Positions 4,285-56,805 of a stretch of 64,000 nucleotides of DNA are shown here, in pieces. The DNA is taken from positions 1-64,000 of the forward strand of contig KE561265.1 in NCBI GenBank assembly GCA_000442015.1, read 5' to 3'. The notes under the pieces are model-generated. The model was not told the origin of the DNA and did not search any database. It was given only the letters and a program-made list of their open reading frames with translations. The position numbers and the translations under genes are program-made. Within the stretch, counting starts at the first letter, position 1. The number at the start of each line of letters is the position of its first letter. The stretch comes from Rozella allomycis CSF55 (taxonomy: Eukaryota).

Positions 4285-7200
4285 AAAACACTCAAAAAAC
4301 ATATCAAGTATCATTTCCTCACCGGATATCTTTGTTTCAGCCGACGACAAGAAGGTAAGGTGGATGATGTATTTAGCAAAGGTGTCTGTCAATTCTTTGA
4401 ACGGTGATTCGCTATTGGAAATTACAGTTACTAATGTTCCTCGGGTTCTTAAAGTAATATTTTATAAAACATTTTTGCAAGTTCATCAATTGCAAAGGAA
4501 AAGAGGCAATTTTGTTTTCGTGTGTAGGAAGTGCTACATTTGTATACCTGGATTCTCTATTGACAAGTTCTTTTGAATTGTGCAAAGATGAGATAATTGA
4601 CGTGATTTATTTCAACGACTATGTTTATGGAATATCTATTCACGGTTACTTGTATCGCACTCACTGGCGTAATCATGCAAATAGGATGATTACAGAGGAT
4701 CCTAAAACTATCGACAAGGTACCGATTAGAAGAAAAGGTATTTCCGCGGCATTATTTTATGATGCAAAATTAATTGTTGGATTTGACGGGAAAATTGAAA
4801 TATTTGCAATAGAGGATCCAGAGGTAAATGAAATTTTGTTTTTAGATGGCAGGAAGCTATTGATGAAATTATTGATTCGCGAATCAGTCACATAAAGGAC
4901 TTATCAGTCAAGAAAGGAGTAGTTTGGGTTGTTACAAAATTGTAATAGTTGAATCATTTTGATATTATTGAAATGGACTTTTATCTTTCAAAATTAGACT
5001 GAAGAGATCTGATTATGTATTTAAAGATGATTACTTGGTAATTTTGTCCCTCTAGTCAGACAGGCTTTTTACAAAGAGTCGGACGAATTGATCTTTTATA
5101 AATTGAATGACAATATAGATTATCCTCTGATGACGTATAATGCCAAAGGGAACATAAGCTCGTTTGACGTTTCTAAATCATTGGTAATTTTTTTTCGTAA
5201 TATTAATGGATATCAATTTTATATGAAGATGGGCGAGTTTCCACTGTAGTGTTTAGTGATAAAGGTATACTAAAAGAAATTTGGACAGTGGTAAATGACG
5301 TAGAAAAACTGAAAAGGAATGCCCGGGGGCAATCAAAGTTTTGAATAATCAGACTGTAGTTTCAATTGTTTGTGAAGGCAATATCATTCTATATTCCGCC
5401 ATGAACGGTCAAAGTAATTCGCTAATTCTCTAAACAAAAGAAATTGGAATCATAAAGCACGAAAACGTTAAGCAGTTTAGACTTTTCTCGGAGTTTTTCA
5501 TTTCCATAGCCGGCAAGGACATTGAATATTATGCTCTGAATGGAAATTTACTCCATTCATACAAATGTGACGACAGCATAAATAATTTCTGTGTAAATTC
5601 AAACGGCTCGAGGATCTTATTTACTATTGCGGGAAATGAAAATATTTACATGTATAAACCGAGCAGAGTTATTCAACTATCAATAAAGTCTAAAGTAGAA
5701 AGCTGCTACTTTTTTGGTGAATTAATAGGTTTAAAGGAAAAGAATAATCTTGAAATTTATTCATGTGAAGAAGAAAATGTTGATCCTGCCACTAATGGAG
5801 AATGTTTTAAAGTTTGTCAAGTAAATTTGAAATCAAGTTCAAATTCCTTAATTGACATTTATAAAGGCGCAAAGATTGCTATTTTATGTGATAATAAAAT
5901 TGAATTTGAAGAGTTGATTTTGCCTGAAAAGAAGGTTGATCAAATAATTCCCTTGTTTTACTTAAATCGATGTCAAGAAATGATGAAAATGGGTGAAAAG
6001 ATGAAAGAAAGGAAGTTTTTTTCTAAACTAAATTCGATTGCTGAATATTTTTTGTTTCGATTTAGGATTCTACATGCTAAATACTTTTATGGACTTGCTG
6101 GCAACATGGCCAATGCCATGGCTTTAGAATTGTTGTTTAATCCGAATAAAGCGTATATTAGAGGTTTTATTTACTACTTGATGGCAGATTATTCTAGAGC
6201 GCAAGTAATAAATAGTAGTTGCTTAATACAAGGAATGGTTTTTAAAGTCTGATACACCAAAGCAAGCCCTTCAAATGAGAATTGAATTGAAGAACTGGGA
6301 ACAAGCCCTAGTATTAGCGCAGCGACTAGATGAAATTCAAATACCTAAAATATTAATCAACTATTCTCTTGAATTAGAACGTGAAGAGCAATTTACTGAC
6401 TCTTACAAAATGTGCCTAGAGGCTTTGTCAATACCCTCACTTGGCGATACTGATCGAATTGAAGCAACTAAATGTCTAATTAGATTGTCCTTTAGAATGG
6501 GGAATATCACTAAAGGAAACGAACTAATGAATACAGTGAATCCAGAAAAGTCTTTTGTTTTAGATTGTGCTGGTTTATTAAACCAAATTTGCCAATTTGG
6601 AGAGGCCGCCAAATATTTTGAATCAGCAAATGATCTTGAATCTGCAGCTGAATGCTATTTAAAAGGTTATATTTTTCTTATATCATAATTAGATAAGAAT
6701 TATTCTAAAGCGAAATCATTAATTCGTCATGTAAAATCAACAAAGGCTTTAATTGATTACGGAAAGGCTATGCTAGGTAAAATTAGTAAATTTTTCGGAA
6801 TAGATTGTGGAGATTTTGAGGAAGCGATAAAAGCCTTTGAAATAGTGAAAGATTATGACAAAGTGGTTAAAATAACTCTATTCAATCTAAATGATCCTGA
6901 AAGAGTATCTTTAAAAATTTTTAGTAATAAAGGCGAAAGAAATTGTCAGAAGAACAAAGTCAAAGAATGGCGCGAAAATGTTGGCAAACTACTTTTTTGA
7001 AAAATCAGATTTAAAGTCTGTCGTTGAATTTTATTTGACTGCTGGGTTAACAAGAGATGCATTTGAAATCGCCCAAACGCAAGGACTAGTTGTCTTTTAC
7101 GCTTCACTGATTGAAGATCCATCCATTGAAGAGCTAAATGATCTTGCTATATATTTTATGAATAAAAGAGACTATTACAATGCCGGAGTATTCTTTTTCA

Positions 7201-8481: not shown

Positions 8482-11928
<3,447 letters not shown>

Positions 11929-12217: not shown

Positions 12218-15190
12218 ATGGAATATTATCCGCCCGAAAAGATTAGAAATATCTGCATCTTGGCACACGTAGATCATGGAAAAACTACACTCTCTGATAG
12301 TCTTATAGCTACAAACGGTCTAATCTCTTCAAAAATGGCTGGAAAACTTAGATACCTTGATAGCAGACAAGATGAACAGGAAAAAGGTATTCTTATTATT
12401 AGCACATTATAATAGGTATCAAAATACAATTATATTTATAGGGATCACAATGAAAAGTAGCTCTATCGCTCTAAAATTTTCACTAATGTCGGCAGAGTCG
12501 AAGCAAGGTATATAAACTATGTGAATTTTAATGCAAGATTACATGGTACATGTAGTTGACTCTCCAGGACACATTGATTTCTATGGAGAAGTTTCCGCCG
12601 CGTCCAAACTTTGCGATGGATGTCTAGTTCTAATAGATGTCGTAGAAGGTGTGTGCACACAAGTAATAAAAATCATGTAATAAAATAGACAATATCAGTA
12701 CTACAGCAAGCTCTAAGAGACGATTTAGTGCCAGTTCTTGTCTTGAACAAAATTGATAGATTGATATTAGAATTGAAGCTCACTCCTATGGATGCATTTA
12801 CTAAACTCTGTCAGATTATTGAACAAGTTAATGCACTAACTTTTACATTCATCTCTCATAAGAATGTAAGATCTATCTGTTCTGTTTTCTAGGCGGCAAA
12901 GGAAATCGGAGTCGAAAATTTTGAATCAAGTGTGTACCACTTTTCACCTGCCAAAGGAAACGTTATTTTTGCGAGTGCTATAGATGGTTGGGCTTTTAGA
13001 ATAGAGCATTTTGCTAAATTCTACCATGAAAAGTTGGGCTTCAGCGAATCTGCTCTATGTAAAGCTCTGTGGGGTTACCACTATTTTGATGCAAAAAATA
13101 AGCGTGTTGTTTCCAGGAAGCAGGCTGATGAGATTGGGTTAACAAGACCATTATTCGTACAGTTTATTTTAGAAAATATTTGGCATGTTTATGACACAGT
13201 CATGAGTAGAGTGTAAAAATTGTTGAAAAATATGAAATAGAAACGTTGAAAAGATTGAAAAAATCATTGAAACCTTGAAAATTAAAGTAATTTGATTTCT
13301 TTACTTCGATAGGTTCCCTTAAGGGACTTTAGATCAAAAGAGCCTAAGGTTTTGCTTGAAACAATCTTCCAACAATGGATACCATTGTCCTCGTGTGTTC
13401 TATGTAATGTTTTAAACTTAACCAATAAAGTAACTGTGGTCAAAAAGATACCAAGCCCAAACGCCTTGCAAGAAACAAAGTTCGAAGGCGTTCCTGAATA
13501 CACGAAACAGATGATTAAATCATGCGATAAACAAGGATCGATAATCGCGTACGTTTCAAAGGTAGTATCAGTTCCACTCTCTAACATTCAACTAACCAAA
13601 CCACGTGATTTGTATAATCCAGAGATCTCAATTGCCATGTCGCGCATATTTAATGGAACTATAAGGGTTGGTGATTTTTTAAGCATAATAGATGCAAAGG
13701 GGGAAGTACAAGAATCTCAAATGGTGCATAGCTTGTTCATGTTTATGGGGAAAGATTTGAAGCAAGTTGAGATATTGCCGCCCGGTCATATTGGTGGAAT
13801 ATATTTTGAAAACAATAAAATATTCAAATCGGCAACGCTTACCAATGACAAAAGCGTTTGTTCTTTGGATTTTTCCAATAACCTGCCAAATCCGATTGTT
13901 AGAGTAGCTGTTGAACCAGAAAATCCCAGTATGTTTATGATATTTGAGTTAATAGGCGAATTAGATAAACTTGTTCAAGGGTTGAAACTTTTAAACCAAG
14001 CCGATTCAGTTGTAAATGTTCTAGTGCAAGAAACTGGTGAGCATGTCCTATTGACCGCTGGGGAGTTGCACTTGGAAAGATGCATTCGAGATTTGACAGA
14101 TACATTTGCCAAAATAAAAATTCAAGTTTCTCAGCCAATCATTCCCTACAGGGAAACAATTGTTTCAGAAAGAGGTAAAAATGATCAGATGAAAAAACAT
14201 AAGTGACTGATGAAATAATTGTAGTAAATGAAACGCCGAATCGACAAATTTTATTTAAAATTAGTGCGAAACCCCTTGAGAAGGAAATATCTGAATATCT
14301 ATACGCANACAAGGAAATATCTGAATATCTATATGCAAAAGAAAATGATGAAAAAAGTTCTGTAGACGACTTGAAAAAGAATATTGAAGGCAAAATAGGG
14401 TAGCTGTAATTTTTTCTTTAAATAGGAAACAAATTGTAGCGTTTGGGCCGAAAAAGATAGGAACAAATATATTGACTACTGAGCAGCCGATTGAAAAAGA
14501 TATCGAATCTTCTATAGTGAAAGGATTTCAGATGTGTTGTGAAAAGGGACCTTTGTGTGATGAACCAATGAATGGTGTATTATTTGTAATCCATGAAATA
14601 AATAGAAATGATGTATGCGAAGGTAAAATAATAAAAATGTGACCAAAAGAATCAACTAATTTTGGTCCAATAACAGGACAAATCATCTCCACATGCAGTA
14701 CAGCATTTAGACAAGCATTTCAGAAATGGTCCCCAAGATTGATGTTGGCAATGTACACTTGTGAAATACAAGCTACAAATGAAGTTTTGGGAAAAGTTTA
14801 TAATGTACTTTCGAAAAGAAGAGGACAAATATTAGGTGAGGAAATGAAGGAAGGTAGTTCATTCTATACTATAGAAGCAATGATTCCAATTGTGGAGAGT
14901 TTTGGGTTTGCGGATGAAATGAGGAAAAAGACTTCTGGAAATGCGCATCCACAATTATTGTTTAAAGGCTTTGAGATTCTAGACATAAATCCGTTTTGGA
15001 AGCCAAAGACGACAGAAGAATTGGAAGATTTGGGAGAGAAAGCAGATAAAGAAAACTTAGCTAAAAAATACATGGATCCGGTTCGAAAAAGAAAGGTAGG
15101 CGAAATTCTCAGTGATAAAAATAGGGACTTGCTGTCGAAGAGTTAGTTGTTACTCATGGCGAGAAACAATCCACACTCAAAAGCAAATAA
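12218..15190 (+). CDS. RIA1: Ribosome biogenesis GTPase Ria1/EFL1 (EF-2-like)
   Basis: [51 protein letters not shown] and [12 protein letters not shown] motifs. 12 introns traced; a short duplication at the N near 14308 is an assembly artefact. Confidence 0.93.
12387..12441 (+). other. Compound 55-nt intron made of two abutting GT-AG units (29+26 nt)
   Basis: ag|gtattcttattattagcacattataatag|gtatcaaaatacaattatatttatag|gg. Removal restores the conserved DEQEKGITMKSS. Confidence 0.8.
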
Positions 15191-15357: not shown

Positions 15358-16781
15358 TTATTTATGTTCAACTGAAACAATCTTTCCTAACATAACAGCG
15401 GTGTTTCCGTCCAAGAAGGCAATACGGGAAAGACCTTCACAGTTCTTGTATGAGTCGCAAACAAATGGTTGGATTGGTTCGAAAACAACTTCAGCTTGTT
15501 CGTTTGACTTGAGAGCGTGTGGAGCTTCAGCTTTCTTACCTCCAGTTTCCTTTCCAACCTTCCAGTTGATTCCGGTGAGTTTACAAGCAGAGCGACCGCA
15601 ACGAACGAAACCAATTGGAGAGTATCCCTTCTTAATTTCACCTGGAATATCGAGAGTTTGAATTTGAGCAACAAAAGATTTGACAGCCTTCAATGAAGCG
15701 TCTTCCTTGTAGATCATGACATCACCAGTTCTTGGCATGTTGTTCTTGTCGAGACCCTTGATGTTCATACCAATGTTGTCTCCAGTTTCTCCCTTTTCAA
15801 CCTTCTTGTGGTGCATTTCAACAGTAAAGATCTTTCCGGTACATGGAGTAGCAGTAGTGTGAGTTGGCAAAAAGATAACATCCTTGTTTGGAACAACTAA
15901 ACCTTGTTCAACTCTTCCGGTCAAGACATCACCAACACCCTTGATCTTGTAGACTCCAGAGATTGGAACACGCATTGGAGCATCTGGTTTACGTTCTGGT
16001 AGAGTAACAAATTTGTCCAAAACATCCAAAAGAGTGTCAACATGCATTTCAGTTCCCTTTTGGTTGACAACCTTTTGTCCCTTCCACCAAGCCATCTTTT
16101 CAGATTTCTTCAACAAGTTGTCTCCTTGCCATCCTGAAATTGGAAGAACTGGAACACACTTCTCAACAAAGTCTTTCTTCCAACCGACACGGGTCAACAT
16201 GTTCTTCATTTCATCAGAAACTTCCTTGTAGCGAGATTCTTTGTATGGACCAGCTGGGTCAGAGTCCATCTTGTTAACTCCAACAACCAATTGCTTGACT
16301 CCCAAAAGATACAACAAACGAGCATGTTGGCGGGTTTGTCCTTGAATTTCACCAGCCTTGTGGTTTCCTTTTTGGATAGCAGTGGTAAAGTTTCCGTCAG
16401 CTGGAACCATCAAAAGAGCAACATCAGCTTGAGCAGCTCCAGAAATCATGTTCTTGATAAAGTCTCTGTGACCTTTAGTCAAAATAATCAATCTTAATTA
16501 CCTGGAGCATCAATGATGGTGTAGTGCCATTTATCAGTAAAAAATTCCTTGGTGGTGCAAGAAATGGTGACACCACGTTCACGTTCATCTTTTTGACGAT
16601 CCATATAGAAAGCAAAAGCGAAAGATGACTTTCCAAGGCGGTCAGCTTCTTGCTTCAATTTTTCCATTTCTCTTTCTGGGATACCACCGAGTTCGAATAA
16701 CAAACGACCAGTGGTGGTTGACTTTCCAGAATCGACGTGTCCACAGATAACAACTGACAAGTGAGGTTTTCCTTGTGACAT
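15358..16781 (-). CDS. EFL: Elongation factor-like GTPase EFL (EF-1alpha paralog)
   Basis: [32 protein letters not shown] and the EFL-type [27 protein letters not shown]. One 29-nt intron at 16473-16501. Confidence 0.95.
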
Positions 16782-17102
16782 TAGTACCAGGGTTCACTTT
16801 CCGATTTTTTTCTTTTTATACCTTGGTGGCTTAGCGTTGTCATTTCGAAATTTCTTTCAATTTCGAGGCACTTTTTCGTGCCTATATACGTGCGAAACAA
16901 CTCAGTAAACATCGTATTAGAGCTCTTTAAACTTCTCTATCGGTATTTATAGCAATGTTACTGTTGCCGAACTTTTTGAACTGAACCAAGCTATCAATAT
17001 GGTTTACTTGTGAACAATAAACTAGATTAAATCATTATTTTTACAATTTGAAAGTTATCTAAGATGAACTTTTTTTCTTTTTTCATTATAAAATTTCTGG
17101 AA

Positions 17103-18940: not shown

Positions 18941-19535
18941 TTACATTTCTCCACACTCAGTTATACTAATAACAACTTTTGGTTTGTTTTGCCCGCCAGT
19001 AGGAACATTCTCTAGTTTTCGCACGATATTCATTCCTTCAATGACTTTGCCGAATACTACATGTTTCCCATCCAAAAATTCACATGGTGCACAAGTTATA
19101 AAGAACTAAAAATGTAAAAATTCGGAGTTACCTGACATCCATTTGTATTAGGTCCAGAATTAGCCATAGACAACAAGCCAGGAACTGAATGTTTATGGAT
19201 AAAGTTTTCATCTTGAAATTTCGAACCGTATATACTGGCAGAACCTGTACCATCACCCTACTTTACATGGCGTGACAAGGTTACCTTTACAAAATCACCT
19301 CCTTGAACCATAAAGTCTTTAATAACTCTATGAAAGGTGCAACCTTTATATCCTCTGGGAACGCCGTTTATCTTATAGTCACCAGTGCATAACTGTCTGG
19401 AATGTATTTACTGAACCCTTTTTACCTAAAATTTTCAGCCGTTTTGGGGCAGGTATCAGCAAATAATTCAAACTTTATCCTTCCAGCTTTTTCTCCGCCG
19501 ATAGAAACATCAAAAAACACAACAGGATTCACCAT
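18941..19535 (-). CDS. PPIH: Cyclophilin H-type peptidyl-prolyl isomerase
   Basis: Spliced sequence [14 protein letters not shown]...TAENFRQLCTG...[14 protein letters not shown]...NTNGCQFFITC...LDGKHVVFG...ECGEM. 3 introns; not in the ORF track. Confidence 0.88.
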
Positions 19536-20075: not shown

Positions 20076-21239
20076 TTACCTTTGGTAGTAGTAGTTTCTT
20101 CTTGACGGAGTTTGAGCAATGTGAGGAGGGTAAACAGAGTTAAGATAGGAATCACGAAAAGGACCTTTAGGGCCTAAAGGATTCGGGATATTTCTTCTAT
20201 ATGGTTGAAACCCTTGCGGCTGAGGAGCGTATAGAGTGTCTGAAGCTGGGGACGGGGTCCGTTGTTGTTGCCTGTGCTGAAATGTGTCTTTCTAAGCATT
20301 CGAATTCAATTACTTATATAATGCCGTTGAGATTGAAATGATGGTGTGATTTCGGAAGAATTTCTTTGCCCGTAGCTATGGTTGGGCATACTTTGTGGAC
20401 TTGGCTGGATAGGAACTGTTAAATATTCCGATAATGATTACCGGATGGAGAAAAATTCGCTGATTGAGTTATTATCGCTGGATCCTATAGTAAAATATGC
20501 GCCTTCATACCATATGGCTTTGAACGTCGCGAAATTGTTCATTCAAAGTCGGCGCCAAAGATTTCCGTCTAAGTTTTTCGCAGACATCCTGAAATTCGCT
20601 CGTTGCTTATTTACCTGTAGTTTTTTAATTTGCCGAGCCTTTTCTGCCAACTGCTCGCCGAATTCCACCGCTTTCTTTTTTTCTAATTCACATTCCTTCA
20701 TCAAACCTATCAACGATAATAATTAATTATGTACTAGAGTGCTTCTCTTTAAGTGTGGCTAATTCTACTTTTAATTGCCCATTGAGTTGCAGGGCTTCAT
20801 TTTCTTTGGCGCTTCTCCTTTGTTCACGATCCTTGTACAGCATTTGATTGTACATAGCTTCCTGTGACACCTGATAATTCCAAAAAGCTATAGATCTTGA
20901 TGCTATATCCATAATTATATCGGGTTTCATGCCACATAATATCATCTATTTAGTTAATGAGATATTTGGCTACTGATTTCCAAGATTCGGAGGGGTTAGT
21001 ATTAACCATACAAATATCACTGAAAATGAACAAAGATTCCACTTACGAATTATCTGTCAACGAAGATTTACACGTTGGACAAACCAAAGCTCTTTGAAAG
21101 GTGTGATTAGCGCAAGCGGAACAAAAAATATCAATGACATTAATAGAATTCACTTACGTGAGCAAGAGGTTATATATGCTTCAGTGTCCTTCAAACTTTT
21201 TCTGCATTTCAGCAAATTGCATTTCAATTCCACTTCCAT
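20076..21239 (-). CDS. HEI10: Meiotic crossover RING E3 ligase Hei10/CCNB1IP1
   Basis: LKCNLLKCRKSL...ITSCSHIFCSAC...CPTCKSSL...MILCGMKPDIIMDIASRSIAFWNYQVSQE, then a coiled coil. 7 introns. Confidence 0.9.
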
Positions 21240-21364
21240 GTCCTTAAGCCACCCAAATTTTGTCACACTCCGATTCAAAAAATAAATTCCATTTTTTCTA
21301 AATATATTATCAGTCATCCTTTTTCAATTTTTTGAATTTAATTTGTTTTTGAATCCCTGCAAAA

Positions 21365-22510
21365 ATGTTAAGGGTTGGCTTAGTAGTCTCGTCATCGGAT
21401 GTTGATTCATATATCCCAAAACATGGAAACAGAGTAGGAAAATAATGATAATGTTTTAGGCATACTTAACCCACAGTCTTATTAAAGGGTATAATGTTCC
21501 TGTTATACCTTTGAAGGCCCCTAAAGCTACAAAGAAAGAACTTTTAAATTTTCACGATGAAGAATATATAGCTGCAATATTTTCTGATGATGAGAATGAG
21601 TGCGAAGGGCTTTTTGGCCTAACATACGATTGCTTTAAGTTCTCTGGTCTAAAGCATTATTGTTGCACAATCGCAGGTGGGTCTATTTATGGCGCAAAAC
21701 AGCTACTGAATGACAATTTGGATACAGTTATTCATTGGGAAGGTGGTAGACACCATGCCTTCAGGTGATGACCAAAAGCACTCAATAAGTTAGAGATTTC
21801 GCTTCTGGATTTTGTTACGTCAATGACATCGCTTTAGCTATTCATGAAATTTTATTAAACATTAAAGGGAATATCCTTTATCTTGATTTAGATGTTCATC
21901 ACGGGGATGGGGTAGAGCACGCCTTCAAATACACTAAACGTGTTACTACTTGCTCTTTCCACCTATTTCATCATGGATACTTTCCTGGGACAGGGTCATG
22001 GGATGATTGCACTAAAGGTTCCATGAATGTGCCTTTTACAGCCGATCAGCATACTTTATGGAAAGATGCTATTCAATACACTATATCTAACTTAATATCT
22101 ATTGTTTCTCCTGAAGTAAGACCTTTATTTTGAATATATTGATTTTGATAATACAGTTTGGCGTTGATACTTTGAAGGGTGATCCTATAGGGCAATGGTG
22201 CATAGATCCATTAACCATTGCTTCTGTAATGAATTTCTTAAATGGGTTTTCAATAAAAAAGATGGTTTTGGGAGGAGGTGGATATAGTCCTTGTGCTACA
22301 GCAAAGGCTTGGGCGATGTTAACTGCCGAGGCATGTCATATATCACTCTCAAATGAAATACCCGTATTTGATGACTGGGATCTATTTTCCAAGGAACCAT
22401 ATTTGTATTCTACAGGCTTTGATCGCACTACTTCTAATCAAGAAGTGGATTTCAAAAGTTCATTTCTGAAAAAACAAATAGATTTATGTTTAATGAAGCA
22501 ACGGAAATAA
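21365..22510 (+). CDS. Class I histone deacetylase (Hos1/HDAC8-like)
   Basis: FGLTYDC, WEGGRHHA, SGFCYVND, YLDLDVHHGDGVE, YFPGTG, QFGVDTLKGDP and LGGGGY motifs. Confidence 0.88.
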
Positions 22511-23494: not shown

Positions 23495-26052
23495 ATGAGC
23501 AACAAATCCTCTAATAAGTCAAGTACCTTGCGTAAAGGAGGAGGTGGCCTGTTGGCAAGACTGGTAAATTTTATCGACATATGACAGCGAGGACGGTCAT
23601 GATTCAACTTCTTTGACTACTTTCGAATCCAAGGATTCTAGATTTTCTGAATTGAACGATGTCGGATTAATTAAGGATGACTCGCCCATAATGTGTCGAT
23701 TGTGTGAAGACACAATTAAAAAGTCGTGTGTTCATGAGCACACTAAGTATTGTGTTCTTATGTGCCAATGTTTCACAAGAATTAATGAATACAACGACCT
23801 CTTATTACATGTATGAATCCCAAACTATTTCGATAATAGGATATAACAGAGATAGGAAAAATAATGTCGAAGAAAGAGTTTGAAGTAAAACAAGTTCTTC
23901 TATTGCGATAGCCATTTGTGCAAGACCTGAAGCAATTAATAAATATATACCAATAGTAGAAAATCATTCGACAACAGATTTAGTTTGTTGGAAATGAAAA
24001 ACGTGGAGTCATCAAATCAAATTAAAATTATGTGGCAAGGCTTTAATTGGTCTAATATCCCTGAAGAAATACCAGATAATGTCTCAAAATATAGAAATAT
24101 CTTGGCGAATCTGGTAATTTAATGAAATGAATAATACAGATTGGAAGCAAAGTACATGTTCTTCGAAAACTCAACTTTTCAACACAAAAGCGAAACGAAG
24201 TAACCTTAAAAACAAGTGAAAACAACGACGCCGAAATTGATACATCTTTGGGAAAAAATCAATCAACTTTTAAAATAGAAGTACGATTTTATGCACAAGT
24301 TTCATTAGATCGAACCTTCTATAAATGATTTTGAATTTGTCAAAAAGCTGAGTAGAGGGGCGTACGGGTAATGATTTGCTCATGTTTAAAAATATAGACG
24401 AGTCTACCTTGCCAAAAAGAAATCAACTGGCGATCATTATGCGGTGAAAGTAATCAGTAAGAGGCACATGAAGAGCAAGGCGGATGTTGAAAGGATATTG
24501 CTGGAAAGAAATATATTAGCGATGGTCGACAATCCTTTTATTGTTAAATTGTTCTATTCTTTTCAAACATTTGATCAACTTTATATGGTGATGGAATATT
24601 TGAATGGAGGGGATCTCTTGTCATTACTTGAAAGTGCTGGGCACTTTGGAGAGTCTTGGGCTCAATTCTATACTGCCGAATTAGTACTTGCTGTAGAACA
24701 TTTACATTCCCTCGGGATAGTACATAGAGATATTAAACCACAGAATCTATTAATAGACAAAAGAGGGCATTTAAAGTTAGCAGATTTTGGGCTTTCGCGA
24801 ATGCGTACATAAATTACTTTTTATTGACATAGATGACTCCACAGTAGTGAAGTAATTTCTATATTTACAAGGATATTACAACAGAGCCAAAAACTGATAT
24901 TGAAATATGGGTCTCAGGTCTCAGATTGAACGACAGAACTTCAGATAATGCTTCATCTGGGTTAATTATGCCCAAAACTAATTCTTTCGTTGGTACTCCG
25001 GAATACCTGGCCCCAGAAATGCTCTTGGGATCAGGATATGGTAAAATGTGAACTTTAATTGTGTTCCTAGATGAATCCGTTGATTGGTGGGATGTTGGAA
25101 TTATTCTATATGAAATACTAGTCGGAAACAATCCATTTTATGATGATGACGTAGAAAAGACTTTCGAAAACATTCTGAGCAGAAGTATGAGCTTAAATTT
25201 TAATTGAAAGAATTTACTTGGCCTAAAGGTGTTTCTTCAAGTGCCATGGACATTCTTGATGGCCTTTTGACAGTTGAACCAAGCGATCGATTAGGGTACA
25301 ATGGTGCGGGAGAGATTAAAAAACATTCATTTTATAACGGAATCGATTGGGACAATATATCTAATGTACAAGCAAGTTTTATTCCCATTCTTGAAGGGAA
25401 TGATGACACTAGATACTTCACAGGCACTCAGTGGAGTCAAGACTCCGTGTTTGAACCTCATGACAATGAAGCAATTGAAGACCCATTTCTTGATTTTACG
25501 TACATAAATGTTAAGCAGCTTAAAGAAGTTACAAAAGATCAGATAAGAAAAAAGGCAATTATAAGAGAGGATTCTCTGAAAACAATCTATAGTGATGACG
25601 TTTTGGGTTCCAATCATAAAATAAAGGATGGCGCAAAAATTCTAGTTGAGAAAAAAGAGCTTTGTTGCTTGATTGCAGAAGACAATCCGATAATTCAAAA
25701 GGTGGCACAAGCCCTGCTAAAGAGCATTGGATTCCAAACAACTTGCGTTGATAACGGACTAAAAGCTGTAGAAGAATGTCAAAAAGTGAAGTTTGATATT
25801 ATTTTCATGGACATAATGATGCCAGGTATAATTATTACTCATTACTCATTAGAAATGGATGGCATAGAAGGAACAAAAATCATCCGTTCAAGCAAAGGAA
25901 TAAATGAAAAGTCTCCTATTGTAGCCTTCTCTGCAATAGGCTCCGATGAAAATCGTAAAGAATTTATCTCTCAAGGATTCAATGATTGGCTTGAAAAACC
26001 CTTCACCAAAAATGATCTTTATAAAATGATCAAGAAATGGATTCACGAATGA
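23495..26052 (+). CDS. RIM15: Rim15/Cek1/Greatwall-like AGC Ser/Thr kinase with N-terminal C2HC finger and C-terminal receiver domain
   Basis: CRLCE...HEHTKYC; kinase motifs PSINDFEF..LSRGAYGRVYLA, HRDIKPQN, DFGLS and FVGTPEYLAPE; receiver domain AEDN...FMDIMMPEMDG...KP. 12 introns. Confidence 0.75.
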
Positions 26053-26238: not shown

Positions 26239-28854
26239 ATGAATTTTATTGCAGATGGATCTTTACTAGAGGAATCCAAAGAAAATATTGTACCAAATCC
26301 TCATGGTCACTCTGCTATTTCGTTGCAATATGCTATTCAACACAAAAATGATTATGCTAAAGAGAAGGCGGAATTCCTTGCCTATATTCAATCTCAAAAG
26401 GAATCTCAAGAATATGAAGATGATCCACTTGACTTGTATTACCAATACATAAAATTTCTTCAAGAGTTTATGGCCACTGGCGCTGTAAATTATCCAGATT
26501 GGATGGAGGGGCTGGAACTAGTTACAAAAGCTTTTGTAGACGATAAAAGGTAATTCTATGCATAATATTTAAAACGATATGCAAATGATATAAGGTACGT
26601 TTATGTTTGGTGTTTGTATGCCAAATGTTGTATAAAACCAGAAGAAGTATTTGAATTCATGCAGTTAAAAGGAATTGGGGAATGCTTGAGTATATTTTAT
26701 GAAAAATATGCAGAATATTTAGCTCAGCGACTGCAAAGGTAAAGCGTGGGAAAGTTAGGCAATTTAGATATAATGATGCCTTGAATATTTTGGATCAAGG
26801 AATTAAATCCAAAGCAAGTCCGTTAAAAAGACTAGTGAAAACTCATGCCGCCTTTTCGTTACAGATCAGTCAGATTCCAACGGAGTCCAAAAAGAGGACC
26901 ATTCAAGGGATAATGCTTGATATGCCTAACCAAGGGAAGAAGAAACAATCTTTTACTGTTTTTCAGGATGAAAAAGAAAGTTATACCAAAGATAATACAA
27001 AGAATTCCTGGTTTAAAACTGCCGATATCTTTTCGAACGAACTACTACACAAAGTAAATCATGCTTGGTTAAATTGATGATAGGAAAATATAAAGCTAAG
27101 TGTACCATGGATGGGCGTGAAAATCCCGCAAAAGAGATCAATATCTGTGGTGCACAAGCCACCAAGTTTTGCGGTTTACAATGATACTCAAAAATATGAA
27201 AGAGATGCTAAATATTTTTCAGCTGAAGAAAAGAGAGCAGAATTTTATTTTTCAAAGAAAGAAACTCTAGTTGTCAAGGAGGCCAAGAAAATGGATGCAG
27301 TCCCATCGCCTACAATTCACACTAAAGAAGCTTTAAAAGATATCATGGGAATGTTTAATGACGAAATAGAAACGAAAGAAGAAACCAAAGAGAAGATTAT
27401 TCAGGACACGCCAAACAATCCCTTTTGTTGTCCTGTAGGGGATGTTGATGAACAAAGGACGAGAAAGAAATTCAAGCCATCAAAATTTGCGATTTTTAAA
27501 GATGCCCAAACACCCGTAAAGACTCCAACTAAACGCGGGACTCTTGAAATTTGTGTCAATTTAAGTACCAAGCAGATAAAGACATTAAAAACTGATATTA
27601 CTGTACCAAAATTGCAAATAGTGCCAGTCGATAAAGATGTAATTCTTTGGAATAATGAATTGATTCAAAGCCATTCAGAGAAAGTTTTACCCTTGATCAA
27701 ATCAGATGCATGCGCCACATTCTATGAATGTGATTTTATTCCTTTTTACGAAAACTTTGAGAAAATGAAGTCAAATTCGATGCCATTTTATTTTAAGCTT
27801 GATAATCATCTATTGTACGCCGTTCAATATAGAATAGGTGAAGGAGGATTCGCATCTGTTTTCATGGCAGATCAAGAAATTACAACACCGACTTCAATGA
27901 ATGCGAATTCGGTAATTTTAAAGCTTCAGAAACCTTCTTGTCTTTGGTAAAGATTTTAACGTCGAGTTGAAAGGGAATTTCACATTTTAAAAAAACTTCA
28001 AGATGAAAACATGCATGTTCCTATTGTTAAATTATTTCAAGGCCATTTCTTTAATCGAATGAGTTGTTTGTCGTTGGAATATTTGGAGCATGGGACAATT
28101 TTAGATTCCATTAATGCATATCGCGCCAAAGGGAATTTTCTCCCTGAACAAATCACTGCTTATTATTCTCTTTGTCTTATTAGAATGATAAAATATTTAA
28201 TTCAAAATAACGTAATTCATTGTGACATCAAAGTACTTTAATTTTTCTTCTTTAATAAGCCCGAAAACATTCTTGTTAGATTCAACGCAGACACTAAAAT
28301 GCCCATGATGGTGAGCGAACACATCGATCCATACATTTTTGATTTATGGTTTCAAAGACACGAATTAGTTTTAATAGACTTTGGAAGATCCATTGATTTG
28401 GATTTGTATTCCCCAACAACTAAATTTAATGTATTCCATGAAGGAATTCATGAAAAGGGAAGCATTGAAAATTTGGTTTCCGCATTTCAAAAAATTCACA
28501 AATCTTGGCAACACGAAGTAGATTTTTTAGGTATGCGAATAAACAATGCTTAATTCAGGTATTGGGAATTCTATTCATTGTCTATTAAGCAATGATTACC
28601 CTGACCTTAAATTAACACCAAATAGATTAGATTTTGAATTTATTCTTAGAAGATCATTAAAATACCCTTGGGAAGTTCTTTTGAATAAGTTAATGCATCC
28701 CCCTTCAGATAAAGGTGAATCTCTTTGTCTACTCAATGATTTGGAAGGAGAATGGAGCATCATTTTGAATTCTGAATGCTTATCAAAACCTTCCTGGCGG
28801 CAAATCCTAAGAAAACACGAAATAGAATTAGTTCAAAAGTTAACTGAAAAATAA
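26239..28854 (+). CDS. BUB1: Spindle checkpoint MadBub (Bub1/Mad3) kinase
   Basis: KEN box (ESKENIVP), TPR region (DDPLD, YANDIRY), GLEBS-like FSAEEKRA, CMI motif PSPTIHTKEA, and kinase motifs GEGGFA, HCDIKPEN and IDFGRS. Confidence 0.92.
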
Positions 28855-29549: not shown

Positions 29550-29737
29550 CTCGTTAGTGGCTGGCTCATCATCTGATTAGGAAAGTTACATATGCAGTCA
29601 CAATTAAAGTTGAAAGCCTAATAGATTATGATTACTTTATGCTTGCGAGTTGCATGTTCTTATAGCTTCTGGGAAAAAGTATACGCCGTTTATAAATTCT
29701 AGTCTGAAAAATCGGAATATATTACTTAAAAGCAATT

Positions 29738-29759: not shown

Positions 29760-31293
29760 ATGACAAAGAAACAGAAATCCGGCAAATCAGATGGAACAAC
29801 AGGTACTCTTTACTCTTTTAAATATTTCTAGCATTGGATTTATATAAAAAGCTAATTTCAAATGAAATTATACCACTGTTGGAGCAATTTCCATCGGTTA
29901 AATATCTTCCAATTGAAAGAGTTGGTGGAGGTAATATGTGTAAGTAGTATTTACAGGATCCTTTTCAGAAGTATACAAGGCGATCGACATTTTCGCTGAT
30001 GAATATGACAATTCATCTTATCGTTTTAGTGTATATGTACCCCCTAAAGAAGAAAGGGAATGTGATATTAAGCATTTAGAGAATATAATATTTACAATGC
30101 AAGAATTAAAAAGCAGCTGGGTTGATATTTATATAAAATACCACCGACTACTTGCCAACTTTGATAATAAAGTCNGGAGAATATAATATTTACAATGCAA
30201 GAATTAAAAAGCAATTGGGTTGATGTTTATATAAAATACCACCGACTACTTGCCAACTTTGATAATAAAGTCCAGTACGTTGCCTTGAAGACTATAACTC
30301 CCACCTCAAGTCCAAGCAAAATAAAAGAAGAATTGGAATTTCTAATCTTACTTCGAGGCAAATTCTTCACCAGTCCGGTGATTACAGCAGTAAGAAAAGA
30401 AGATCAAGTGATCGTTGTTATGCCATATTTCAGTCATGACAGTGCAATGGAATATATTCCGCGAATGAAAGAAATAGATATTAAGCTTTACATGGCACAA
30501 CTATTATTTGCCTTGTCTTGGTTGCATACGATGAACATTATTCACAGAGGTATCATCCATACAATTGAAATAATGTAGATGTCAAACCAGGCAATTTTCT
30601 GTTCTCTTTGAGTACTAGAAGAGGTTTGCTAGTCGACTTTGGATTGGCAGAGGTAAATGAATTGTTTGAAAATAAAAGTATTTTGACGACTCGTGTCAAG
30701 AAGAAAAAGAAACAAAATCAACAATAGACGCTGAGATTCATAGAGGGCTTAGAGAAACTTATGGCGATGGTATTTTACCAAAGGACTCTAGATCACAACT
30801 GAAAGCAAATAGAGGTGGTACAAGAGGATTCAGAGCACCCGAAGTTTTAATGCGCTACAAAGATCAAACACCGGGTAAACTAAATCAATGAATTTTAGTA
30901 GCGATCGATCTTTGGGCTGCAGGAATTGTATTACTTTGTCTAGCTACTAAACGGTTCCCATTCTTTCAATCAAACGACGATGATGACGCTCTAGTTGAAC
31001 TTGCAATTGTATTTGGTAGAAAGAAAGTAGAAAAGGCTGCTGCTATATGCAACAGAGTTTGGAAGTGCAATGTCCCTGGAATTACCGATGAAGGAAAATT
31101 CAAAACTCTGAAAGAACTCTGCCAATCATTAAACCCTTATGATGAATGGTCAGATGATCTTTATGATTTACTTGATAAACTGTTAGATTTCGATTTCAAT
31201 TCTAGAATAACTTCCCTAGACGCATTACAACACAAATTCATAAACTCGCAACAAGTCTTGGAAAAATTAAATAAAGAACTTCTAAATTTTTAA
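29760..31293 (+). CDS. CDC7: Cell division control kinase Cdc7
   Basis: GGGSFSEVYKA, YVALKTITPTSSP, DQVIVVMPYF, HRDVKPGNFL, LVDFGLA, ANRGGTRGFRAPEVL and FPFFQSNDD motifs. Confidence 0.93.
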
Positions 31294-31474: not shown

Positions 31475-31547
31475 GCCCTGATAGCTCAATCGGTAGAGCG
31501 TGCGGCTTTTAACCGCAAGGTTCGGGGTTCAATCCCCCGTTGGGGCG
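31475..31547 (+). tRNA. tRNA-Lys(TTT)
   Basis: Cloverleaf with GCCCTGA/TTGGGGC acceptor stem, TGCGG-CTTTTAA-CCGCA anticodon arm and GGTTCAATCC T-loop; T-run terminator downstream. Confidence 0.95.
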
Positions 31548-31697
31548 CATTACTTTTTTACTTTACACAAACTATTTAGTGTAAAAAATAAGAATTATTC
31601 ATCAAGACCATTTTTAATTCCGATCATTCTGCCATTTCTATCTGAACTTTTCCCCCTTATTTCTTAATTTTGGATAAAACTTTGTCGACGCCACTTT

Positions 31698-37065: not shown

Positions 37066-37227
37066 TTTTCAGAAATTTCTCCACTCTTCGGTCTTCCACT
37101 ATTTGAACTTACTAAAAAAGAAACATTATTTAAGAAATAGACAAAGCTTTTGACTACTTTTTTTACCACTGAATTTTAAAACTCGTAGGTATAACCAATT
37201 ACCAATAAAATGGGCATTCAAAAAAGC

Positions 37228-37300
37228 TAGCAGCGCCAAGTTTCGATCAAGGGACCTCTGAGTTATGAGCCCAGCGCTCTTCCAACTGAGCTACGCTGCT
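37228..37300 (-). tRNA. Initiator tRNA-Met(CAT)
   Basis: A1:U72 acceptor stem AGCAGCG/CGCTGCT, anticodon loop CTCATAA and initiator-type T-loop ATCGAAA; T6 terminator follows. The T-stem has two U.U mismatches. Confidence 0.88.
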
Positions 37301-37335
37301 ATAGCGAAAAGTCACAAATATAACAATTAACATAA

Positions 37336-55318: not shown

Positions 55319-56805
55319 TTAAATGGTTTTATTATCGTTATCGGAATCAATATTTCTTAAACAGAGATTATTATTATCGTTATTAAAGCTTTGAAGGGCG
55401 AACACCCCATTCAAATTTATGTGGTCCACAGCGACATGGGAAATGACGGGTCGCCTTGTTAATTGAGGTCTTAGGAATACTTCCACGGCGATATCAATAA
55501 GGACTAAATTAGATTAAATTATTGAAATACCTTGAATCAAGCTGAATCCTGTGGTGATTCCCAATAAACCATAGGTGTCATTCTCTACCCATATCATCGA
55601 TAGCAGTATTATAGAAGTTATAAATCTCGACACATAAACGATTATAGATCTCTTCTCTATCATGAATTTAATCAGCAAATTACGCGTTAATTGTTTCGAA
55701 GCGAATCCGGCAATTATTTTGACGCATGCGTTTACAAAGAATAACAACGATCCTACAACGCAAAAATGAATAACTGTGGAGATACTCGGTTCCAGCGGAT
55801 AATATCTATAAACATCAACAATAACAACGCTAAACATTAGATGAAACAGGTGCAAAGGTAAATGCACAAAAATCCAGGCACTTGTTGCCATTTTACCTTC
55901 ATGAATAAAGTCTTCACGCATATCATTAAAGTATATCCACCATAAGGCGAATGTTATTACTGTTCCTAATGCAACTAAACCCCTTAAGACTACTAAGTTA
56001 GTCTTTTTACCACTTTGCGAGAGATAATGATTCCTCTTTCGAGTAAGCCCAAAGTAGATTCATTACATTTTCACCGAGAAAAATAATTGTCATTAAGCCA
56101 AATCTTTCAGGCAAATGGCTTTTTGCGAAGGTCAACTGGCCTAACCATAACGTAAGGAATTACTTTTCTTGTTTTTTCTCCCTCTAGTATTTGGATGATA
56201 GCTTGTATCCCTATGGATATAAACCAAACTATTATGTTGTATGGCATTGGAATGAAAATAGAAGTAGTCCAAAATGCTATAGAAAAGAAATGATTTAAAC
56301 ATTGTTTTAATGCAAATAATTTTGCATTTTTTACATATATACCAACCAATCCATAATTTACGAACAATGTAAACTGTATCGTTATGAACGAGATAGAATA
56401 AAATATTCTCATTGAATCGTTTTCGGTGGCATATTTTATAGAACCTGCAAATGCTGTGACAGCCAGCATTTGAATAAGCAAAATAAATCGATGGTAAAGA
56501 TCATCAATATCAAAGCGGCAAGAAAAGATGGTAACCTGGAACCAGGACCACCAAACAGGCACAAAGACAAATGTAAAGTCAATTAACCCTTCATTGGTTA
56601 TTATCGAGTCTCTTTTTGACAATTTACTGAAAACAGCTACGAAGAATATGTCATAGAATAGCTCCATCCATGTGGCGCGTCGATCTTCGTCAACTTCTGT
56701 TTCTTGACATTCCTCATTTAAATCGTACGAGGGTAAGCTAATAAGTAATATTTTTTTAGTTTTCTATTACCCGAAAAGTTTTTGCAAATTGGTTTGGAAA
56801 GACAT
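55319..56805 (-). CDS. Low temperature requirement A (LtrA)-family membrane protein
   Basis: RATWMELFYDIFFVA, WWSW...FSCRFD and HLPERFGLMTIIFLGE motifs; multiple TM segments; 4 introns. Confidence 0.85.

Follow-up and report, generated by a model that had tools for sequence, protein, structure and literature searches.

Can a spliceosome take TG as the only 3' end that an intron offers? Intron-terminal AG is among the most constant signals of eukaryotic genes, and the question is raised by a gene in a stretch of 64,000 nucleotides from Rozella allomycis CSF55 (positions 1 to 64,000 of contig KE561265.1, assembly GCA_000442015.1), which we analyzed as a whole and refer to as the window. The gene lies on the minus strand at 20306-21239 and is, judged by its sequence, of the HEI10/CCNB1IP1 type; its predicted product is a RING E3 ligase that would act in class I crossover formation at meiosis. 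Its first intron begins with GT and ends with TG. Introns of the GT..TG kind are already known. We consider it probable that the HEI10-like intron belongs to the U2 type, that a ruler anchored at the 5' splice site determines where it ends, and that it would be spliced at the TG, a reading based on conservation and on a pattern that recurs in three genes.

A sequence-only reading of the window had placed a 26-nt GT-TG intron at 21132..21157 on the minus strand, between the flanks ...tca c and at att ttt tgt, and this is what we found. The string GTAAGTGAATTCTATTAATGTCATTG has a single occurrence in the 64,000-nt window, at 21157..21132 on the minus strand, where shuffled sequences let zero matches be expected, and the flanks are identical to those described. 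The intron is 26 nt long, starts with GTAAGT, ends with ATTG and interrupts the gene in phase 1. Its sole internal AG is part of the GTAAG of the donor, as the same reading had it; counted from the donor end, AGs have their last base at +5 (within GTAAG), +66 and +68. Measured past the TG, the next AGs thus end 40 and 42 nt downstream, and the one at 40 nt is out of frame. That a 26-nt AT-rich stretch has an AG-free interior is unremarkable; the unusual part is the terminal dinucleotide.

Removal of the 26 nt restores the reading frame and yields TSCS-H-IFC, with the codon of the His split into C and AT. A complete RING finger is obtained by excising exactly these 26 bases, and no alternative set. 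Furthermore, the junction is unable to slide: exon 1 ends in C where the intron ends in G, and the intron starts with G where exon 2 starts with A. Because the bases mismatch at both ends of the junction, no other ends 26 nt apart yield an identical mRNA. If the C/AT His codon is real, it follows that the intron is GT..TG to the base. The further claim that the zinc-binding His of the RING fixes the junction to the base stood up in our analysis, in which no AG-ending alternative preserved the RING.

Homology on both sides of the junction speaks for this codon. Residues 6-27 of exon 1 match positions 1-21 of the Pfam zf-RING_5 profile (E 0.011), and residues 1-21 of exon 2 match its positions 23-42 (E 0.0058); the one profile position left unfilled between the exons, 22, is the split codon. 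Singly, these per-exon matches are weak; together they are complementary halves of one zf-RING_5 domain. With exon 4 (70 aa) as query, a word-index search gave no homologue, and phmmer/HMMER against 1.84 billion representative proteins gave 211 matches at E<=0.001. From the 150 matches listed, out of these 211, a set of 49 homologues was drawn by alignment to the product spliced at the TG coordinates, which is mildly circular as the TG product served as query, though the homologues had initially been found through exon 4 alone. The spliced product aligns with these 49 among the 150 listed from residues 1-5 to at least residue 100, and the homology extends to residues 100-240. In 21 of the 49, M stands in the same start column.

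The alignment retains the N-terminal RING with its C-x-H ligand pair, the Cys and His columns being kept in 43-49 of the 49 homologues: the Cys columns hold C in 49, 49, 47, 43, 49 and 48, the His column holds H in 43. Within the C-S-H-x-F-C block that spans the junction, the counts are C 47, S 48, H 43, F 42 and C 43. The six homologues without the His carry gaps or odd residues precisely at the S-H-I-F-C block, and they look like gene models whose splicing went wrong right there. HEI10 homologues may commonly have an intron at this point that is frequently mis-annotated.

In its layout, the predicted protein resembles the HEI10/CCNB1IP1 family throughout, with an N-terminal RING, a conserved segment behind it, a helical region and homology over ~200 residues; as a family member it is ordinary, and the oddity is confined to the gene structure. 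The homologue library carries no names, and the label HEI10/CCNB1IP1 goes back to members that we recognize as being of the vertebrate type. Hei10 of Sordaria is reportedly a further named example of the family. With the two Pfam halves and the 49 homologues, the assignment to HEI10 made in the sequence-only reading is borne out in the form of a HEI10/CCNB1IP1-type RING protein. The layout also appears to fit the description of HEI10 by Chelysheva et al. 2012 (PMC3405992), in which a conserved post-RING segment and a coiled-coil region are named.

To score the junction alternatives we used a family hidden Markov model (HMM) built from the 49 homologues. The product of the TG junction (26 nt) scored 255.3 bits. 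AG junctions at 62 nt and 68 nt gave 213.3 and 206.2 bits, respectively, and were hence beaten by 42-49 bits, and the first AG at 66 nt, which shifts the frame, gave 34.7 bits, close to the 31.3 bits of the unspliced sequence.

All further parts of the gene follow the usual pattern of the window. Exon 1 (21158..21239, minus strand as all that follows) starts with the ATG at 21239 and comprises 27 codons, the first RING half, plus the C of the His codon. After intron 1, which has an A at intron position 23 (window base 21135), exon 2 (21047..21131) finishes the His codon with AT and encodes the second RING half. The remaining six introns are all GT..AG and 26-28 nt long. Intron 2 (21020..21046, 27 nt) precedes exon 3 (20974..21019, 46 nt), which aligns with the homologues, and intron 3 (20946..20973, 28 nt) precedes exon 4 (20735..20945), which encodes the conserved post-RING helix segment and the beginning of the helical region. 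Intron 4 (20707..20734, 28 nt), exon 5 (20615..20706) and intron 5 (20589..20614, 26 nt) could be compared with the public protein of this locus, P0001, and the junctions of both introns are shared with it. Then follow exon 6 (20511..20588), intron 6 (20485..20510, 26 nt), into which P0001 reads and where it terminates, exon 7 (20442..20484), intron 7 (20416..20441, 26 nt) and exon 8 (20306..20415), which runs to the TGA at 20308-20306. After removal of the 26-nt TG intron and the six GT..AG introns, the frame is open and the product has 248 aa. An extra short intron is possible near 20313, and the 3' end of the gene model is provisional in this respect.

How does such an intron compare with the others of this genome? 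We surveyed the window with a home-made Viterbi gene finder (codon log-odds from the window's long open reading frames, GT donors, introns of 18-70 nt) in gene intervals picked by hand on score and Pfam matches, and all counts are therefore to be read as approximate. The finder called 184 GT..AG introns, and 162 of these do not exceed 34 nt. Within these 162, lengths of 26 nt (39 introns), 27 nt (27), 28 nt (29), 29 nt (21) and 30 nt (14) were seen, with a single call at 25 nt, although the predictor made 19 calls at 22-24 nt; window introns are mainly 26-29 nt long. Their splice signals amount to little more than a 5' GTA and a 3' AG. Donor position +3 was A in 147 of 188 training introns, and the GTAAGT of the HEI10-like donor conforms to GTA(A).

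A further regularity concerns intron position 23, counted from the 5' end: it is A in 92 of 137 canonical introns with lengths of 26-31 nt (background 0.357; binomial p ~1e-13), and this enrichment is found in every length class, for example in 17 of 21 introns at 29 nt. Counted from the 3' end, no position is as constant. A23 is best read as the putative branch point, which would be set by its distance from the 5' splice site. By these features, the HEI10-like intron is an ordinary mini-intron of its genome (GTAAGT, 26 nt, A23) save for the T at -2, which leaves it with TG in place of the AG expected at a 3' end.

It does not stand alone in this. We scanned for non-canonical introns with one mismatch permitted in the four canonical intron bases, weighted by a penalty. 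At penalty 4 the scan gave 165 GT..AG introns and 18 non-canonical calls in real genes. A HDAC8-like gene on the plus strand contains a 26-nt GT..TG intron (22116..22141) with an in-frame AG 15 nt further on. The Pfam Hist_deacetyl profile runs 229 / 231 across its TG junction, the first five residues past the TG correspond in alignment to 259-263 of human HDAC8, a core strand, and an HMM of 96 HDAC homologues scores the product at 288.5 bits with these five residues versus 270.3 bits without. The public Rozella HDAC protein uses the AG 15 nt on; it is short of these five conserved residues of the core and runs on into the adjoining EBP2-like gene as a fusion. In a BUB1/Mad3-like gene, also on the plus strand, a 27-nt intron (26550..26576) is GT..CG, with an in-frame AG 18 nt on. 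Compared with fission-yeast Mad3 (PDB 4aez_C), its upstream exon reaches residue 108 with 3 residues left, the split codon is 112 and the downstream exon continues from 113, gapless. The AG alternative deletes six residues, among them the conserved Tyr, Asp and Arg of the family.

Validated non-AG acceptors thus number 3 in ~170-185 inferred introns. All are altered at -2 (window bases 21133 in the HEI10-like, 22140 in the HDAC8-like and 26575 in the BUB1/Mad3-like gene) and keep the terminal G; non-GT donors or changes at -1 were not validated in any of the window genes covered by the one-mismatch scan. A23 is present in all three, and with 26, 26 and 27 nt they fall where intron lengths have both their lower limit and their mode. 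As the sequence-only reading had ranked it, the HEI10-like intron is the strongest single case of a TG acceptor, since the other two have in-frame AGs 15 or 18 nt on.

The three cases also bear on a trivial explanation, by which the T is an error of base calling or assembly, or else a rare allele, and the true genome has an AG and an ordinary intron. TG and AG are one base apart, and the assembly is imperfect, with 12 isolated N in the window and an odd 98-99-nt tandem duplication that contains an N. Against this, the three independent non-AG acceptors all deviate at -2, with no validated case at any of the remaining three canonical positions. Intact reading frames of up to 1068 codons argue against a high rate of substitution errors, and at an assumed 1e-4 errors per base ~0.02 such cases would be expected in ~184 introns. 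We therefore regard an error or rare allele as quite improbable.

Splicing at TG has precedents. In man and C. elegans, U2-type spliceosomes make use of TG, GG and AT as acceptors (PMC2374985, PMC4176328, PMC4484395), with GNAS and TSPYL2 as human examples for TG (Parada et al. 2014, PMC4176328). Like the human TG sites of Szafranski et al. 2007 (PMC2374985), which combine a normal GT donor and TG for AG with a pyrimidine at -3 and a purine at +1, the HEI10-like site has T at -3 and A at +1. The human pattern of a TG in tandem with a nearby AG is matched by the HDAC8-like intron (AG +15) and, with CG for TG, by the BUB1/Mad3-like intron (AG +18), and these two acceptors may well give two isoforms each. 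In C. elegans, the germline prefers proximal non-AG acceptors, TG in par-4, AT in ubxn-6 and GG in icd-2 (Ragle et al. 2015, PMC4484395). There, proximity to the start of a short intron outweighs consensus in the choice of non-AG sites, as we suppose for Rozella, where the affected genes moreover are meiosis and chromosome-segregation genes. In contrast, the C. elegans introns have a strong AG within 18 nt, which is used in somatic cells (PMC4484395).

For the ruler, the closest likeness comes from ultra-short introns in myxobolid cnidarians and Dicyema japonicum (PMC13644364, in which Stentor is cited). These introns of ~26 nt have GTA donors, AG acceptors and A residues that recede from the AG as the intron lengthens, and hence are fixed relative to the 5' end. 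They differ in that they come from animals and, being derived from annotation, show canonical AG ends only, whereas Rozella is a fungus relative with non-AG ends. On introns of Rozella itself, the only remark found concerns its S23 gene, with two ~30-nt introns that lack the usual motifs (PMC6349667, in the section concerned). Our literature search, whose scope excludes the original genome paper (James et al. 2013), returned no case of TG as the only acceptor of an intron in a genome where ~1-2% of the introns may end in NG.

Besides the imperfect assembly and the approximate counts from hand-picked intervals, several results weigh against the use of the TG. Just 2 of the 18 non-canonical calls at penalty 4 were validated. 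Because exon 1 has only 27 codons, the finder missed the HEI10-like intron at penalty 4 and picked it at 2.5; the support for this intron hence is homology. A simple rule accounts for 136 of 142 canonical introns: the acceptor is the first AG whose G is no less than 26 nt away from the donor. For the HEI10-like gene this rule predicts a 66-nt intron, a frameshift and a ~38-residue stub. The public protein P0001 is a 117-aa fragment that extends from an internal Met of exon 4 into intron 6, and the RING is absent from it. In the human data (PMC2374985), a TG acceptor is always accompanied by an AG no more than 28 nt away, to which it is the alternative, a tandem arrangement that the HEI10-like intron does not match with its nearest AG at 40 nt, and AG>TG mutations activate neighboring AGs and not splicing at TG. 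With an AG that is 40 nt away and out of frame, the HEI10-like TG would have to be a constitutive site.

The human mutants, the first-AG rule and the public annotation without a RING all suit a dead acceptor, that is, an AG-to-TG mutation that left the HEI10-like gene a young pseudogene or a crippled gene in the CSF55 strain. Splicing to the AG at 66 nt would then shift the frame and truncate the protein after ~38 residues, and splicing to the AG at 68 nt would leave a RING without three zinc ligands. Obligate parasites with small populations do fix mildly harmful changes, which adds to this explanation. Yet the 14 codons that would be skipped agree with the family consensus, and elsewhere in the gene, in seven further exons and six further introns, no lesion is seen. 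The HDAC8-like and BUB1/Mad3-like genes show an equal single-base pattern, and again the residues to be skipped are conserved. Extrapolated to the whole genome, 3 dead acceptors per ~170-185 introns would amount to hundreds of broken genes, which is hard to reconcile with a working genome. We hence consider a dead acceptor unlikely. For the HEI10-like gene the alternatives are use of the TG or the ~38-residue stub, and TG use is favored because the 14 codons otherwise lost are conserved, the rest of the gene is clean and three like changes occur in 64 kb. Use of the site in vivo, at whatever efficiency, is inferred from these sequence features.

Splicing at TG might be explained as follows. 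The 3' end would be placed largely by geometry: the branch adenosine would always lie 23 nt in from the 5' splice site, and cutting would take place only at least 3 nt past A23, so that a 26-nt intron would have just three bases beyond its branch. In this tight geometry, the terminal G would be the essential contact and the A at -2 preferred but dispensable. Structural work has shown that the terminal intron G pairs with the first intron G in the catalytic centre. In its general form, the proposal states that the 5'-anchored ruler, with a branch A at +23 and a cut at least 3 nt later, strictly needs only the terminal G, that 1-2% of the introns hence are GT..NG and that the HEI10-like TG is the first natural acceptor of this kind without an alternative, contrary to what the human sites would lead one to expect. 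This wider claim we put forward tentatively, as possible though falling somewhat short of probable. In a bolder form, the three weak acceptors, all in meiosis and chromosome-segregation genes, might be stage-regulated switches comparable to the germline-preferred sites of C. elegans described above. Non-consensus splice sites act as regulated switches in yeast meiosis.

Other routes by which the 26 bases could be lost from the coding sequence were also considered. A U12-type intron, which has extended conserved donor and branch motifs, was rejected, as the donor is GTAAGT and no U12-like donor is visible in the 26 nt. The bases might alternatively be excised from DNA, like the eliminated sequences of ciliates, or be bypassed in translation. 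Ciliate eliminated DNA has TA at both boundaries, and one TA is left after excision; the intron has the size of the minimal class of such sequences, and a TA lies near each end of the HEI10-like 26-mer. Removal from TA to TA, however, would give Arg instead of the zinc-binding His. The 26-mer also carries a perfect GTAAGT donor at its 5' end together with the A23 of the genome's introns, Rozella, which is related to fungi, uses the standard genetic code, and the 3' junction of the HDAC8-like intron is without TA. To excision from DNA or translational bypass we hence give hardly any credence, and retain U2-type splicing at the TG as the probable route.

If true, a natural spliceosome that routinely takes TG or CG with the branch three bases away would show which structural contacts are dispensable, and it would provide a natural system for site choice in the second catalytic step. 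Gene finders that admit only AG mis-annotated all three genes that could be checked here, leaving HEI10 without its RING and the HDAC five core residues short and fused to its neighbor. Rozella is a key lineage beside the microsporidia, and from such mis-annotation it follows that its inventories of meiosis and checkpoint genes may be systematically wrong.

A number of observations accompany the three introns. The HEI10-like and HDAC8-like genes are divergent, with 125 nt between their ATGs (21240-21364), and each carries a GT..TG intron. The exon begins with AT after all three non-AG acceptors versus 26 of 162 canonical introns, a comparison made post hoc on three cases that we do not rely on. 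A 29-nt GT..TG intron is possible at 4942-4970 (plus strand) in an IFT140/172-like gene, around which Pfam and PDB searches with this part of the gene gave no match. A simpler scan of pairs of open reading frames was too noisy to be used.

Most other calls of the non-canonical scan were discarded. For the GT..GG call at 5184-5209, a canonical 32-nt GT..AG intron at 5197-5228 yields an equal downstream frame. The candidates at 18944 and 63141 are genuine stop codons and the one at 55362 is a gene boundary; those at 29688, 30121, 23435, 41983, 42553 and 59919 are unsupported, or confounded by N or tandem duplication. Non-GT donor calls all lie at gene edges, within a tRNA or near N. Two further calls led to composite introns. 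At 12387-12412, a GT..AA call was rejected as homology requires a span of 55 nt, and this span, 12387-12441 on the plus strand in an EFL1-like GTPase gene, is a stack of mini-introns of 29+26 nt. Likewise, the actual span of a GT..GG call at 9845 is 89 nt. This seemingly long intron of a USP7-like gene (9757-9845, minus strand) consists of mini-introns of 31+31+27 nt placed end to end, with no exon between them, and its first two units, identical at 27 of 31 positions, are a tandem duplicate. As a separate GT and AG are present in every unit of both stacks, the units may be removed stepwise.

The window as a whole uses the standard genetic code, has open frames of up to 1068 codons and a G+C content of ~33%. 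Its genes include flagellar transport genes, a kinase and receiver domain combination, and LtrA-like and PPR genes. Intron size alone would suggest a dicyemid or a myxozoan, but the EFL gene, the kinase with its receiver domain and a 100% identical public protein assigned to Rozella allomycis CSF55 speak for Rozella. The elongation factor at 15361-16793 (minus strand) is an EFL and not an EF-1 alpha; algal and dinoflagellate EFL fusions share 71-73% identity with it. At 24390-26049 (plus strand), a response-regulator receiver domain (Pfam E 1.2e-20) comes after a protein kinase domain, in one gene or two, an arrangement known from fungal Rim15. The tandem duplication mentioned above, real or an assembly artefact, repeats ~98-99 nt in frame at ~30075-30270 (plus strand) in a protein-kinase gene, with an N inside. 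Finally, two tRNA genes are present, tRNA-Lys(UUU) at 31475-31548 on the plus strand and tRNA-Met(CAU) at 37226-37301 on the minus strand.
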